A DNA stretch of 64,000 bases from Candidatus Heimdallarchaeum endolithica (GCA_021513715.1 CP084167.1:576001-640000); one strand, 5' to 3'. Shown: positions 2 to 4,807, numbered from the stretch's first letter. Notes: generated by a model not told the origin, from the sequence alone. Program-made: numbers and translations.

Positions 2-1936
2 AATAATATTGATCAATCTAATTTGAAGAAAATCATCTGCTTTAGCTCAATTGCAGGAAGATTCGGTAATAGAGGACAAGTAGATTATGCTTTTGCAAAT
101 GGTTATCTAGCTAGAACATGTTGGAGACTTAAACAACAAGGAATTGACGCTCTAGCTATAGATTGGTCAGCTTGGGCAGATATAGGAATGGCAACACAAG
201 GTTCTATTCTTAAAGTGCTGAAAGCAGCAGGAATAACTCCCATACCATTAAAAGAAGGAATAAGAATGTTTACTGAACTAACCAATTACACCTTCGAACA
301 AAGCGAATTAATAGTTGCAGGAAAACTTGGACTTCTTCTAAAAGAAACAGAAGATAAAAAAACAAGTGGACAACTAGAGACTAGTATGAACTCAGAAAAA
401 TATCCAATGATCGATGAAATAAGAAAGACTGACAACAGTTTTATAGCTTTAAAGATGTTAAAATATGATTACGACTTATATATGAGAGATCATCAAATCC
501 AAGGATTGCCAATATTTCCTGCAGTAATGGGATTAGAATTCTTCGCAGAGATGTTCAAACTTACAACAGAAAAAGATGTTCGAGCAATAACAGAAATATC
601 GTTTAGAGAAGCAATTAAACAGTTTAAGAACAAAGATGTTGAACTTCAATGTTCATTTGATACAGAAAAAGGAGATATGAAAATTAAAACAATCTTTACA
701 GACATTAAAGGAGTTCAAAAAGAAAAGAAACACTTCATCTGTAAGTCTGTAAAAAATACGACAGAAAAAAGCTATAAGAAAAAGAATATAGAAAAAAGAG
801 TTATACCACTACTTTCCAAAGAAGTGATCTATCAGCTTTTCTTCCATGGCCCAAGTTTTCAAGTTTTGGAGAATTTGAATGAAATAAAAGGAAATATCAT
901 TTCCACTAATGTCAAGATTCCAAATCTGCCTTTATTCAAAGATGAAGAATTAAAAACTATTCTCATTCCTCGAGCAATAGAAGCTGCTTTACAGACAGCA
1001 GGGTTGTATGACATGTTCATTAACAATGTTGTTTCATTGCCCTCAAAAATAAAGAACTTGGAAGTATACAAAGAAACAGAAGCTGTTTTTGCCGAAGCTG
1101 AATTCCTAAAAATAGAGGAAAGACATAGTTACTTCAATGTAAAGATTTACGATGCTGAAGGAGAAGTAATAATGGTTTTAGAAGAACTAGGAATGATACA
1201 TACTACTATGCCCATAAATTTGGACGAAAAAGGAAAGAAACTCTTCCAGATAATTAAAGGATATCATGAAATAAGAACGAAAGTAGATGACGAAAAAGTA
1301 GCTGTTTTACCTATTCACAAAGTAGTAGAAGAATACAGAAAAAATAGACAAGAACTAGAAAATAAACTAGTCGCTTACGAAAAAACAAGATTTACTAAAA
1401 TATCCAACGAAAAAAGGAAAATGGAATATTTAGCAGGAGTAATTCTTGCTAAAGAACTTTTTTCAAAATATGAAAACATTACAGATTTCAGAAGTATAGA
1501 AATAAAAAAGAAAAATAGGGGGCAACCTTATTTTTTCAACAGGCAATTAAAAAAAGAAACAGATTGGTATGTTTCAATTAGTCATTCAAATGATTTCGCC
1601 GTGGTCTCTATTGAGAGACAACCAGTAGGAATAGATATAGAAAAGGTAGAAGAAAGAAGTAAAAGTTTCTATGGTGAAGTTTTTTCAGATTATGAATTAT
1701 CAAAAATTGCAAATGACCATACTTTAGGAACAAAATATTGGACGGCTAAAGAGTCATTAACTAAAGCATTAGGAGAAGGATTGCATGTTAAACTTAAAGA
1801 AATTGAGTTTGGTTATAACGATGGCAAATTTGATCTAAAAAAATATCCTTCTTCTCTAAAACAAGATCAATTACATACATCTATCGAATCTATTGAAGCA
1901 GCAGGATATGTTGTTTCTAAATGTGTAATAAAATAA
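2..1936 (+). CDS. C-terminal part of a type I PKS / PfaA-like multidomain synthase: ketoreductase end, PKS dehydratase, fused Sfp-type phosphopantetheinyl transferase (5'-partial)
   Basis: Frame is open to the window edge. KR motifs FSSIAGRFGNRGQVDYAFAN and WSAW; DH motif HxxxGxxxxP (DHQIQGLPIFP), HGPSFQ, EAALQ; PPTase motifs VSISHS, VGIDIE, WTAKES..KA.G.G. Confidence 0.85.
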   Translation, partial: NNIDQSNLKKIICFSSIAGRFGNRGQVDYAFANGYLARTCWRLKQQGIDALAIDWSAWADIGMATQGSILKVLKAAGITPIPLKEGIRMFTELTNYTFEQSELIVAGKLGLLLKETEDKKTSGQLETSMNSEKYPMIDEIRKTDNSFIALKMLKYDYDLYMRDHQIQGLPIFPAVMGLEFFAEMFKLTTEKDVRAITEISFREAIKQFKNKDVELQCSFDTEKGDMKIKTIFTDIKGVQKEKKHFICKSVKNTTEKSYKKKNIEKRVIPLLSKEVIYQLFFHGPSFQVLENLNEIKGNIISTNVKIPNLPLFKDEELKTILIPRAIEAALQTAGLYDMFINNVVSLPSKIKNLEVYKETEAVFAEAEFLKIEERHSYFNVKIYDAEGEVIMVLEELGMIHTTMPINLDEKGKKLFQIIKGYHEIRTKVDDEKVAVLPIHKVVEEYRKNRQELENKLVAYEKTRFTKISNEKRKMEYLAGVILAKELFSKYENITDFRSIEIKKKNRGQPYFFNRQLKKETDWYVSISHSNDFAVVSIERQPVGIDIEKVEERSKSFYGEVFSDYELSKIANDHTLGTKYWTAKESLTKALGEGLHVKLKEIEFGYNDGKFDLKKYPSSLKQDQLHTSIESIEAAGYVVSKCVIK

Positions 1937-1971
1937 TATGGAAATTAAAAATAAAAAAAAGGTGATAATAC

Positions 1972-2733
1972 ATGTTACAACTGAATTATGATATTAAATT
2001 TAGAAAGGATTTCATTCATGGAATTCTTTATTTGCCAGAGGAAGAGGGGCAATTTCCTCTAGTCATAAGATTGAACGGTTTTCCAGGCAATTCTCCAGAA
2101 AAGGAAGAACAAAGGTTAGCAGATATTATCACCCAGAATAATATGGCTTTTTATGCCTTTGACTATGTAGGAGTAAGAAAAAGTACAGGGACTTTTAATT
2201 ATTATACAAGTCTAGAAAACATAAATACTGTAATAACTGATTTATCTCATCACCCTCGAATTAATCCTGCAAAAATAGCTCTTCTTGGAGAAAGCTTTGG
2301 AGGAGCAATGGCAATAAGCCAAGGAGTGAGAGACCAAAGAATAAAATGTATTGTTTTAAGGTCTCCTGTATATGATACTGAAGTTATTCCTCAAATTCCG
2401 TCTTTTAATACTTTAGTTAAAATATGGTCCAGAAACAATCAAATACGTTTTCCTAAAGGAGACATAAGTGAATTATACTATAAACAAACAAATCTTTACA
2501 ACCCTAAAAAAATAGCAAATCTGGTTAACTGCCCAGTAAAATTAATAGCAGGAGATAAAGATGAGTTGTTAGAAGTTAAGGGTTTTAGAGAACTTTACAA
2601 ATGTTTACCTCGAAAATCAAGAAAAGGAATTGATATTATCAAAGGAGCAGATCATAACTTTACTAAACAAAAACAGTTTATTGAATTAAAAAGTGAACTT
2701 TCCAGTTTTTTGACTTGTTGCCTTTTAAGCTGA
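1972..2733 (+). CDS. Alpha/beta-fold hydrolase (possible thioesterase)
   Basis: Nucleophile elbow GESFGG, acid GDKDE, His in GADHNF; GGTGA SD 6 nt before ATG. Confidence 0.8.
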   Translation: MLQLNYDIKFRKDFIHGILYLPEEEGQFPLVIRLNGFPGNSPEKEEQRLADIITQNNMAFYAFDYVGVRKSTGTFNYYTSLENINTVITDLSHHPRINPAKIALLGESFGGAMAISQGVRDQRIKCIVLRSPVYDTEVIPQIPSFNTLVKIWSRNNQIRFPKGDISELYYKQTNLYNPKKIANLVNCPVKLIAGDKDELLEVKGFRELYKCLPRKSRKGIDIIKGADHNFTKQKQFIELKSELSSFLTCCLLS

Positions 2734-3237: not shown

Positions 3238-3301
3238 GAATAATCAGATTTTAAAATAAATTAAACAAAAATAAAATGGAAAAACAGTAAATTTTTTTAT
3301 G

Positions 3302-4807
3302 TTAAAGGTTCCTTGTTTGCTCTAACTTACTTCTTTGTTTCCACAGATTAAGTATTCTTCGCTGCTTCTCTCCTCGTGTTCCGTTTCTTACTCTTTTTGT
3401 TGAACCTAAGCCTATTTTTTCATAAAAAGCGTAAAGAGCAGCAACTTTTATTTCTTCGTTTTCTTCTATCTTTTCTTTGATCGAAGCTTTTTCTATAAAG
3501 TCTGTAGAAACTATTCTTTTCTGAAATTCTTTTGTTTCAAGTATAGTTTTATGGAAATCTATGTTGGTTGTAATCCCACTTATTGTTAATTCTTTAAAAG
3601 CCAACCTTGCTCTTTCTATTGCATCATTTCTGGTTTTTCCCCAAACAATAAGTTTACCTAGTAGAGAGTCATATTCGTTTGATACATTGTATGATGAAAA
3701 GACAAAAGTGTCGAATCTAACATGATAAATACTTGGAGCGATTAATTGTTCAATTTTTCCCGATTTAGGCAAAAAGGTTTTTGGATCTTCAGCATTTATT
3801 CTAAATTCAATTGCACTTCCATTTATTTTTATTTCATCTTGAACATAACTTAATTTTAATCCCCCTGCTACTCTGATTTGTTCAACTACAAGATCTATTC
3901 CAGTTACCATTTCTGTTACAGGGTGTTCTACTTGAATTCTAGGATTAACTTCATTAAAATAAATTTGTCCATCTTTGTAAAGAAATTCAGCTGTTCCAGC
4001 ATTAACATATCCAAGCTCTTTAGCCATCTTACAGACTTTTTCTCCAAGTTCATTTCTTTCCTGTTCTGTCAAAAATGAAGGAGCTTCCTCAATTAATTTC
4101 TGATGAGAACGCTGAATACTACATTCTCTATCTCCCAAATGGATTACATTACCATACCTATCTCCAATAAACTGTATCTCTATGTGTCTTGGAGACTCAA
4201 TATATTTCTCAATAAAAACAGTCTTATTACCGAAAAAGTTCTCGGCAACTGATTGTGCTCCTAAAAGAGAAATTTCTAAAGTTTCAGGAGAGGTTACAAT
4301 TTCCATTCCTTTTCCTCCCCCTCCAAAAGCAGCTTTAATGATTATAGGATAACCTATTTCTTCAGCTACTGCTTTAGCCTCTTCTAATGTTTCTACATAT
4401 CCTTTTGAACCTGGAACAGTAGGAATACCTACTTTACTTGCTATGCTTCTAGCTTTAACTTTATCTCCTAAAAGATCAATAACTTCGGGAGATGGACCAA
4501 TGAAAACAATTTTGCTTTTTCTTACTTTTCTTGCAAATTCTGAATTCTCAGAGAGAAAACCATAACCTGGGTGTATAGCATCACACTTAGCTTTTTTAGC
4601 AATTTTTATTATTTTATCAATGTTAAGATAAGTTTCATTAACTGAACCAGAACCAATACAATAAGCTTCATCTGCTAGTTTAACGTGTAATGATTGAGAA
4701 TCGACTACAGTAAAGATAGCTACAGTTTTAATATTCATAAGTTTACAAGCACGAATGATTCTAACAGCTATCTCTCCTCGATTTGCAATAAGTATCTTCT
4801 TAAGCAT
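3302..4807 (-). CDS. accC: Biotin carboxylase subunit (acetyl/propionyl-CoA or pyruvate carboxylase)
   Basis: KILIANRGEIAVR, HPGYGFLSEN, GGGGKGM, RECSIQR, EVNPRIQVEHPVTE, EFRINAED. Confidence 0.92.
   Translation of the reverse strand: MLKKILIANRGEIAVRIIRACKLMNIKTVAIFTVVDSQSLHVKLADEAYCIGSGSVNETYLNIDKIIKIAKKAKCDAIHPGYGFLSENSEFARKVRKSKIVFIGPSPEVIDLLGDKVKARSIASKVGIPTVPGSKGYVETLEEAKAVAEEIGYPIIIKAAFGGGGKGMEIVTSPETLEISLLGAQSVAENFFGNKTVFIEKYIESPRHIEIQFIGDRYGNVIHLGDRECSIQRSHQKLIEEAPSFLTEQERNELGEKVCKMAKELGYVNAGTAEFLYKDGQIYFNEVNPRIQVEHPVTEMVTGIDLVVEQIRVAGGLKLSYVQDEIKINGSAIEFRINAEDPKTFLPKSGKIEQLIAPSIYHVRFDTFVFSSYNVSNEYDSLLGKLIVWGKTRNDAIERARLAFKELTISGITTNIDFHKTILETKEFQKRIVSTDFIEKASIKEKIEENEEIKVAALYAFYEKIGLGSTKRVRNGTRGEKQRRILNLWKQRSKLEQTRNL

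Follow-up and report, generated by a model that had tools for sequence, protein, structure and literature searches.

A putative self-activating type I fatty-acid/polyketide synthase with linked acyl-CoA carboxylase genes in the closed genome of Candidatus Heimdallarchaeum endolithica

Results

Gene content and domain order of the locus

The present study deals with a gene cluster for a putative acyl-chain synthase in the archaeon Candidatus Heimdallarchaeum endolithica, the end of which lies at the beginning of a 64,000-nucleotide stretch of DNA (GCA_021513715.1, CP084167.1:576001-640000; G000:C1:576001-640000 in our coordinates; hereafter the window) from a chromosome that is available as one closed contig of 3,326,783 bp. 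The first open reading frame (ORF) of the window (2..1936, plus strand) is open to the left edge and encodes the C-terminal 644 aa of a 3,515-aa megasynthase (P0004), followed by genes for an alpha/beta-hydrolase, a biotin carboxyl carrier protein (BCCP) and a biotin carboxylase (BC). Directly upstream of the synthase are genes for a 524-aa carboxyltransferase (CT) of the acyl-CoA type (Carboxyl_trans, 631 bits), a biotin-protein ligase (BirA) and the acyltransferase PlsY.

An earlier reading of the window, made without database searches (the sequence-only reading), had noticed ketoreductase (KR), dehydratase (DH) and Sfp-type phosphopantetheinyl transferase (PPTase) motifs at the end of the first ORF, followed by a Ser-Asp-His hydrolase, a BCCP and a convergent BC. 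Pfam matches and direct reading located the three sets of motifs exactly where they had been placed, and the three following genes are all present. That reading had also asked whether ketosynthase (KS), acyltransferase (AT), acyl carrier protein (ACP) and enoylreductase (ER) domains precede these motifs. The full gene is indeed a single ORF of 3,515 codons (L003:9389-19936) that starts at G000:C1:567389, outside the window, and its 10.5-kb upstream extension reads ER-KS-AT-KS2-ACPx3. When the full protein was searched whole and in pieces against Pfam and NCBIfam, the domain order duplicated ER-KS-AT-KS2-ACPx3-KR-DH-PPTase was obtained (Table 1).

The two ER lobes share 25% identity across 197 aa (E 4e-4), indicating a tandem duplication that has since diverged. 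By established rules for polyketide synthases (PKSs), the combination of GHSLG, the downstream Arg and xAFH in the AT is the malonyl-type pattern. The KR motif of the window ORF, S16...Y29-A-F-A-N33, corresponds to S2887, Y2900 and N2904 of the full protein, and the DH shows H164-QIQ-G-LPIF-P173 (H164 at nt 491-493) and E327-AAL-Q331 (nt 980-994). In the PPTase (window ORF residues 458-536 for AASDHPPT_N and 541-609 for ACPS; 3329-3480 of the full protein) we read GIDIE, WTAKESLTK, P1a (RGQP) and P1b' (ISISH), so that the N-terminal lobe, the ACPS lobe and the Mg/CoA-binding D..E and W/FxxKE motifs of an Sfp-type enzyme are all there. The best family model for the whole protein is PfaA (TIGR02813), with 969.1 bits against a curated cut-off of 1010.1.

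In a full-length alignment of 24 Asgard sequences and 13 bacterial relatives, the residues C919, H1053 and H1094 of KS1, S1296 and H1402 of the AT, C1860, H2008 and H2048 of KS2, S2887 and Y2900 of the KR, and H3035, P3044, E3198 and Q3202 of the DH are invariant (37/37), N2904 of the KR is found in 35/37, and D3416, E3418, W3451, K3454 and E3455 of the PPTase are invariant wherever that domain is present, including 24/24 Asgard proteins. The second KS is consequently not a Cys-less chain-length factor (CLF), since its Cys-His-His triad is retained throughout. The ExxxQ of the DH, to which the sequence-only reading had drawn attention in place of the usual DxxxQ, is likewise real and is no peculiarity of this gene, being shared by all 37 aligned family members. 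All domains required for a full cycle, from condensation through reduction and dehydration to reduction, are thus present with their conserved catalytic residues intact. The megasynthase is predicted to work iteratively, as a type I fatty-acid/polyketide synthase on a single polypeptide, and to belong to the Pfa-like 'Type R secondary lipid synthase' family.

Table 1. Features of the megasynthase cluster and of lipid-related genes discussed in the text
Feature	Location	Strand	Evidence or remark
Duplicated FabK/NMO-type ER	P0004 residues 1-700		lobes 70-244 and 326-618; TIGR03151 (FabK) 6.7e-29 for 326-618
KS1	P0004 residues 712-1185		Pfam/NCBIfam
AT	P0004 residues 1198-1500		FabD model 247 bits; GHSLG, downstream Arg in ERGKAM, xAFH
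KS2	P0004 residues ~1600-2075		Pfam/NCBIfam
ACP x3	attachment positions S2217, T2323, S2434		ACP2 at L003:16259-16504
KR, full protein	P0004 residues 2707-2931
KR end	window 11..181	+	Pfam KR 5e-11, residues 4-60 of window ORF
DH, PKS-type (PS-DH)	window 467..1189	+	Pfam PKS_DH_N and PS-DH, residues 156-396 of window ORF
Fused Sfp-type 4'-phosphopantetheinyl transferase, two lobes	window 1373..1933	+	PF22624 and PF01648
Alpha/beta-hydrolase, 253 aa (P0002)	window 1972..2733	+	GESFG, later Asp, GADH
BCCP	window 2755..3237	+	EAMKM; Pfam/NCBIfam; BCCP-specific NCBIfam models below cut-offs
BC, AccC-type, convergent with BCCP gene	window 3302..4807	-	all three BC Pfam domains
DegV genes	L051 = G000:C1:3260915-3267428 (four in tandem); 806002, 1190390, 1411572, 1628449, 3228979		one with internal TAA
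Stand-alone Dak2 proteins x2, ~210 aa	684627 and 1748603		no DhaK beside
PlsY-DegV pairs of family f7	G072:C6:63849-65423; G079:C88:3084-4658; G071:C106:10103-11672; G078:C192:7784-9353; G080:C288:503-2069

A closed system for activation and substrate supply

The closed 3.33-Mb genome was searched with the families PP-binding, ACPS, Biotin_carb_C, Carboxyl_trans and Biotin_lipoyl, and both genomes of the genus with PYC_OADA. Three PP-binding domains were found, all inside the megasynthase gene, and the C-terminus of the same protein is the sole match to the ACPS/PPTase family. Because ACPs and PPTase are found nowhere else in the genome, the fused PPTase has no other possible client, which agrees with the self-activation that had been proposed from the window. 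Equally, the BC and the BCCP of the window are the only matches to Biotin_carb_C and Biotin_lipoyl, respectively, and the genome-wide search for a carboxyltransferase recommended by the sequence-only reading returned a single Carboxyl_trans gene, the one adjoining the synthase. Since BC, BCCP and CT are each single, there is no other enzyme that the biotin system could serve.

This linkage extends to relatives. In tblastn comparisons of the cluster proteins with 12 loci from five families (designated f1, f4, f7, f14 and f27), the CT gene is directly upstream of the synthase and BC and BCCP are adjacent in 12/12 loci. An orthologue of the hydrolase follows right after the PPTase end in f1, f14 and f27 and is found beside BCCP in f7. 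The megasynthases of f4 (L020 and L027; ~3,240-3,310 aa) are devoid of the N-terminal ER lobes and carry more ACP repeats; their genes are arranged BC-BCCP-CT-synthase, and a hydrolase gene was not seen in these loci.

CT, BC, BCCP and biotin ligase are predicted to constitute one acyl-CoA carboxylase. An alternative would assign BC and BCCP to an anaplerotic carboxylase, of pyruvate or another substrate, whose genes are situated beside the synthase by chance. Model scores give it some basis: the BC reaches 574 bits on pyruvate-carboxylase models, the BCCP is best matched by the model for the C-terminal part of pyruvate carboxylase subunit B, and the CT has methylmalonyl-CoA decarboxylase alpha as its top model, with a score under the cut-off. 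However, a PYC_OADA carboxyltransferase is absent from both genomes of the genus, the only CT of the genome is of the acyl-CoA type and abuts the synthase, CT, BC and BCCP are linked to it in all 12 loci of the five families, and the BC passes the cut-off for the subfamily of acetyl-CoA carboxylases (ACC) (NF006367, 623.7 bits against 597), not that of pyruvate carboxylase. As far as sequence goes, the pyruvate carboxylase can be dismissed as very improbable, and the local supply of malonyl-CoA that had been suggested for the cluster stands as a prediction. Taken together, we are highly confident about the identity of the megasynthase and about its closed, self-activating and self-supplied design.

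Hydrolase and acyl carrier protein sites

The hydrolase had been proposed to be a release thioesterase. Its presence in the cluster is conserved, but the protein is of the esterase type and matches none of the recognised thioesterase families (PF00975 type I/II, hotdog). It is hit by the Pfam families Hydrolase_4, Peptidase_S9, Abhydrolase and BAAT_C (weak, below cut-off), and its nearest solved proteins are carboxyl-, cinnamoyl- and MHET-esterases (E 1e-13 to 1e-5). Because the synthase does not end in a thioesterase, reductase or acyltransferase, a role in chain release is plausible from the context, with the hydrolase as the candidate enzyme.

Carrier proteins have D-S-L or D-S-I at the phosphopantetheine site. 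Read separately, the three ACPs of P0004 show DSI, DTV and DSI, and those of its nearest relative likewise DS, DT and DS. Throughout the KS2-bearing family (P0006-P0118), nearly all ACPs, bacterial as well as Asgard, read D-T-V, and in most members every ACP does so; D-S-I is kept in related synthases that have no KS2. In alignments with solved ACPs, the Thr takes the position of the attachment Ser. The S36T variant of E. coli ACP is reportedly no substrate of AcpS, and a literature search for phosphopantetheinylation of Thr returned no paper or precedent.

Distribution and phylogeny

The 16S rRNA of the host scores 1324 bits with the archaeal model vs 1060 with the bacterial one. A search for the C-terminal 644 aa was positive in 51/83 genomes of the class; the open frames around them mostly measure ~3,200-3,600 aa. 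Carriers are concentrated in f1 (27/30), f3 (2/3), f4 (10/12) and f7 (11/12), and f5 (0/22), f6 (0/2) and f2 (0/1) have none. In the sample of the phylum, 56/301 genomes are carriers; outside the class there are five in f14, on the Loki side, and three in f27, one of which is the closed genome of Candidatus Harpocratesius repetitus FW102 (G247). Database homologues with the same full architecture carry the labels Heimdallarchaeaceae, Hodarchaeota, Thorarchaeota, 'Promethearchaeota' and Lokiarchaeum GC14_75, where the protein is annotated as Pks15/1. Over KR-DH-PPTase, identity to Asgard homologues amounts to 38-53% and to bacterial proteins to 31% at most. Most of the bacterial relatives have the architecture KS-AT-KS2-ACPn-KR-DH, some with an additional PPTase and a few with ER and PPTase (e.g. 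Myxococcota P0063). Relatives of the KR-DH-PPTase part with 28-30% identity (L057, L058 and L059) also occur on short contigs of metagenome-assembled genomes (MAGs) labelled 'uncultured Halobacteriales archaeon' and 'Rickettsiales bacterium'.

Trees of KS1-AT, rooted on modular PKSs, were calculated with FastTree (116 rows) and with IQ-TREE (LG+G4, 56 rows, SH-aLRT); the homologue search with the KS-AT core was swamped by multi-module PKSs and provided no named PfaA references. Of the named Asgard sequences, 19/20 form one clade (support 99 in FastTree, SH-aLRT 99 in IQ-TREE), which is nested in the KS2-bearing bacterial radiation (98 and 82) and neighbors a clade of genes from Myxococcota and Saprospirales (84), in trees from which named references of Type R (Koribacter, Solibacter, Elusimicrobium minutum, Roseiflexus) were absent. 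Transfer from bacteria to archaea is the likelier direction, with a rooting that is insecure. Within the Asgard clade, genes labelled Loki or Hod are sister to those of Heimdallarchaeaceae, and other lineages of the Heimdall class branch earlier; as this order agrees with the identity pattern in the phylum sample, it suggests that the synthase may have been transferred within the Asgards. P0049, a 3,011-aa protein of an 'Asgard group archaeon' with the ER...PPTase architecture, stands outside the main Asgard clade beside the unnamed P0048, which might reflect a second acquisition or wrong binning of the contig.

In Candidatus H. aukensis (G006; locus L028, C1:480700-500699), the segment comprising PPTase end, hydrolase and BCCP is duplicated in tandem (about 14222-18773), which yields a second, stand-alone PPTase fragment of 208 aa, and the KS-AT region has an apparent frame break at about 6700 (open frame of 2,729 aa). 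Both could be real or an error of long-read assembly.

One might suspect a bacterial contaminant, a chimera, or a nonfunctional, decaying gene from horizontal transfer, given that the family is mostly bacterial, that the Asgard clade nests among bacterial sequences and that the H. aukensis copy shows the irregularities just described. Against this, the gene is located 567 kb into a closed chromosome, the local GC content (0.30-0.31) is inside the range of the window (0.25-0.34), the catalytic residues are all invariant, and the predominantly intact frames in 51/83 class genomes and the single clade of named Asgard sequences are difficult to reconcile with an artefact or relic. From our point of view, such an origin is extremely improbable, and contamination or a chimera is ruled out for this genome by the closed contig, the GC content and the class-wide conservation. 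The sequence-only reading had named a chimeric bacterial contig end as the outcome that would overturn it; contig, distribution and synteny all speak against this, and by its 16S rRNA the host is an archaeon.

Lipid genes in carriers and non-carriers

The enzyme that forms the first ether bond in archaeal lipid synthesis, geranylgeranylglyceryl phosphate synthase (GGGPS, PcrB), was not found in the genome: at relaxed threshold, the best hidden Markov model match had E 0.013, and tblastn with the GGGPS of relatives gave E of at least 0.39, so neither search turned up a hidden divergent GGGPS. The enzyme is undetected in both closed genomes of the genus and in the closed Harpocratesius genome. 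Weak PcrB-like matches (2e-6 and 3e-9) occur in f4 genomes. Across the phylum sample, GGGPS is found in 223/301 genomes, namely 7/56 carriers of the synthase and 216/245 non-carriers, numbers in which related genomes are not independent; separate contrasts are provided by f1/f3/f4/f7 vs f5/f6 within the class and by the subgroups g51 vs g61 within f27. The seven positive carriers comprise one probable contaminant contig, one weak match and the five f14 genomes. In f1, the sole strong match (G010:C45:1515-2198, L035; E 2e-55) resembles GGGPS of the Loki-side families and is located on a 7.6-kb contig, which is probably a contamination of the bin. As the f14 carriers keep GGGPS and f21 has neither synthase nor GGGPS, the link between the two is not absolute.

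Family searches of the genome showed PlsX and PlsC to be absent, PlsY to be present in three copies (6-12 in f7 genomes), and DegV, the fatty-acid-binding FakB family, in nine; DegV is absent from four control archaea. The number of DegV copies tracks the synthase, with 7-15 in f1 and 4-19 in f7 vs 0-2 in f5. Comparison of gene positions further showed that in five f7 genomes the best-scoring PlsY gene abuts a DegV gene. The f7 genomes have neither GGGPS nor any Fe-ADH_2/glycerol-1-phosphate dehydrogenase (G1PDH) match. DegV and the stand-alone Dak2 proteins may together represent a split fatty-acid kinase. The genome also encodes two copies of CarS.

Neighbouring genes

Next to the BC gene lies a tandem pair of TldD/PmbA metallopeptidase genes (window 4994-7781, minus strand), which is also adjacent in the locus L023 of G002, and behind the pair a gene whose 1,140-aa product has Big_7 Ig-like repeats (window 7907-11329, plus strand). 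On the other side of the cluster, a 374-aa ORF (L003:4895-6019, plus strand) is located directly upstream of plsY and has no Pfam or NCBIfam match.

Discussion

Archaea have been stated to lack fatty-acid synthases (FAS) I and II, ACP and ACP synthase (10.1101/2024.07.05.601840), and the lipids of Asgards are called an open question (PMC12993045). PlsY and PlsC in Asgard MAGs have already been published (PMC6431249, PMC6737245), and a KS resembling those of polyunsaturated fatty acid (PUFA) synthases was noted in a Heimdall MAG by antiSMASH (PMC7472256). The genome paper discusses the absence of PlsC, not the megasynthase gene, and its text contains neither 'polyketide' nor 'acyl carrier' (PMC8813620). 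The complete synthase, the closed ACP/PPTase/biotin system and the GGGPS pattern are described in none of the papers that we found.

The closest known systems are the Type R synthases of Koribacter, Solibacter, Elusimicrobium and Roseiflexus, which consist of KS-MAT-CLF-ACP(3-6)-KR plus a PPTase gene, where MAT denotes the malonyl-type AT (Shulse and Allen, 2011; PMC3098273). Common to both are a single pfaA-like gene with KS-MAT-KS2, tandem ACPs and KR, a linked Sfp-type PPTase with P1a and P1b', motifs (x(G/D)xP and hShxH) that have been assigned to Types M-T (PMC3098273), and an acetyl-CoA carboxylase gene, which in Koribacter is inside the cluster. In our trees, which were free of named Type R references, the Asgard genes are positioned within the bacterial radiation that shares KS2. 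The Asgard system differs in that one fused chain includes the PPTase and the duplicated FabK-type ER, as in some bacterial relatives (e.g. Myxococcota P0063), that the cluster holds a complete ACC (CT, BC, BCCP, BirA), which is the only one of the genome, that the archaeal host has no free ACP or type II FAS carrier, and that the so-called CLF keeps Cys-His-His in 37/37 sequences and hence is a second KS.

With the bacterial and thraustochytrid PUFA synthases (PfaA-E), the megasynthase shares the PfaA-like core of KS-AT-tandem ACP-KR-DH (TIGR02813, 969 bits), the PfaD-like NMO/FabK-type ER, the PfaC-like second KS and a PfaE-like Sfp-type PPTase. Unlike them, it has all parts on one polypeptide and no PfaB AT, its PPTase carries P1b' rather than the PUFA-type P1b, and most ACP sites have Thr. 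The protein contains PS-DH/PKS_DH_N and no FabA-type DH/isomerase domain (a genome-wide search for FabA was not made), hence it offers no route to cis double bonds, and together with the score below the PfaA cut-off this rules out a PUFA synthase proper. Fungal FAS alpha resembles the Asgard protein in its C-terminal PPTase, fused to a synthase that carries the substrate ACP and thus self-activating; the fungal PPTase is of the AcpS type, whereas that of the Asgards is a two-lobed Sfp-type enzyme (PF22624 and PF01648), and scaffold and ER type are unrelated. The carboxylase, finally, is built like the three-subunit acyl-CoA carboxylases of archaea and actinobacteria (AccC, AccB, PccB-type CT), with separate BC and BCCP and a single Carboxyl_trans subunit of ~520 aa; it differs in being dedicated, by linkage, to a megasynthase and not to CO2 fixation, with acetyl- or propionyl-CoA as its candidate substrate.

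With regard to function, we propose that the carboxylase would make malonyl-CoA, which the malonyl-type AT would load onto the synthase, and that the two KS domains would elongate the chain, with KR, DH and ER reducing it fully. As no FabA-type isomerase domain is present, one would expect a saturated (or hydroxy) acyl chain as product, not a PUFA. The adjacent esterase-type hydrolase would then free the chain as an acid, the expanded DegV (FakB-like) proteins and the stand-alone Dak2 proteins would convert it into acyl-phosphate, and from there the acyl group would be transferred to glycerol phosphate by the multiplied PlsY acyltransferases. In this way, acyl chains could enter the membrane lipids of lineages that lost GGGPS. 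For this predicted product and membrane route, we regard the chances as lying slightly below even. The relevance to the lipid divide that the sequence-only reading had proposed gains support from the gene distributions and remains a prediction from sequence.

Several observations weigh against this proposal. The G1PDH (EgsA) of the genome is genuine (NF002022, 413.9 bits against a cut-off of 413), which rules out that this enzyme is the missing one and leaves GGGPS as such; CarS is kept in 78/83 class genomes, and one of three UbiA proteins resembles digeranylgeranylglyceryl phosphate synthase (DGGGPS), with scores below the cut-offs. Because these enzymes are retained, the isoprenoid-glycerol pathway may persist by another route. 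All five f14 carriers keep GGGPS, so the synthase can coexist with ether-lipid synthesis. Full-length FakA was found neither beside the DegV array nor elsewhere in the genome, which has Dak2-domain proteins only. The hydrolase resembles esterases and matches the acyl-CoA thioesterase ACOT2 with E 0.002 only, and most ACPs of the family have at the attachment site a Thr whose modification is without a precedent that we could find. Further, the Type R family was defined as making 'secondary', not core, lipids, its products are unreported in that work (PMC3098273), and we found nothing newer in the literature. An ACP-independent archaeal route to fatty acids may also exist in Asgards (10.1101/2024.07.05.601840), and the sole cultured Lokiarchaeon with analysed lipids showed archaeal lipids only (as cited in PMC13400652).

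It can also be imagined that the same enzyme serves to make some specialised 'secondary' lipid or a compound resembling polyketides, such as a hydroxy or keto acid with a long chain, the tail of a glycolipid, or a storage or envelope lipid and not bulk membrane, and that the membranes are isoprenoid by way of an unrecognised enzyme that forms geranylgeranylglyceryl phosphate. The classification of Type R as secondary lipid synthases (PMC3098273), the GGGPS of the f14 carriers and the retention of G1PDH, CarS and the DGGGPS-like prenyltransferase fit this possibility, as do the archaeol bilayer predicted for Heimdallarchaeia (PMC12042123) and the f4 versions, where the missing ER lobe suggests that products vary. 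What speaks for a more central role is that the cluster represents the genome's only ACP-dependent synthase machinery and its only use of biotin, that the synthase travels with multiplied PlsY and DegV, fatty-acid-handling genes of phospholipid synthesis, and that GGGPS is undetectable by two methods in the two closed genomes of the genus and in that of Harpocratesius. We therefore consider an exclusively secondary product somewhat unlikely. The identity of the synthase, its closed design and the predicted product and membrane route together form the best explanation overall, which we regard as fairly probable.

One could go further and speculate that an acyl route took the place of the first ether-forming lipid step in the Heimdall group and, as a separate event, in the Harpocratesius lineage, and that the KS2-bearing synthase family uses phosphopantetheinyl-threonine. 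PlsY, which has been shown to accept both glycerol 1-phosphate (G1P) and glycerol 3-phosphate (PMC13400652), would esterify acyl-phosphate to G1P from the retained G1PDH, and CarS, perhaps with the DGGGPS-like prenyltransferase, would complete lipids that have an archaeal backbone and are of ester or mixed ester/ether type. That the family always carries its own dedicated PPTase would be explained if this enzyme were specialised for Thr. For both parts to hold jointly is, in our opinion, rather unlikely. If true, a modified Thr at the ACP site would be a new carrier-protein chemistry, as far as we could find.

Overall, the archaeal group closest to eukaryotes includes a member whose closed genome contains a complete and conserved ACP-dependent synthase, with what we predict to be its own activation and substrate supply, and this synthase resides in lineages without GGGPS and with multiplied bacterial-type acyl-handling genes. 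The problem of the 'lipid divide' in eukaryogenesis can thereby be turned into specific experiments on named genes in existing enrichment cultures, and whether carriers, most of which are without the first ether-lipid enzyme, have fatty-acid membranes is now a testable question.

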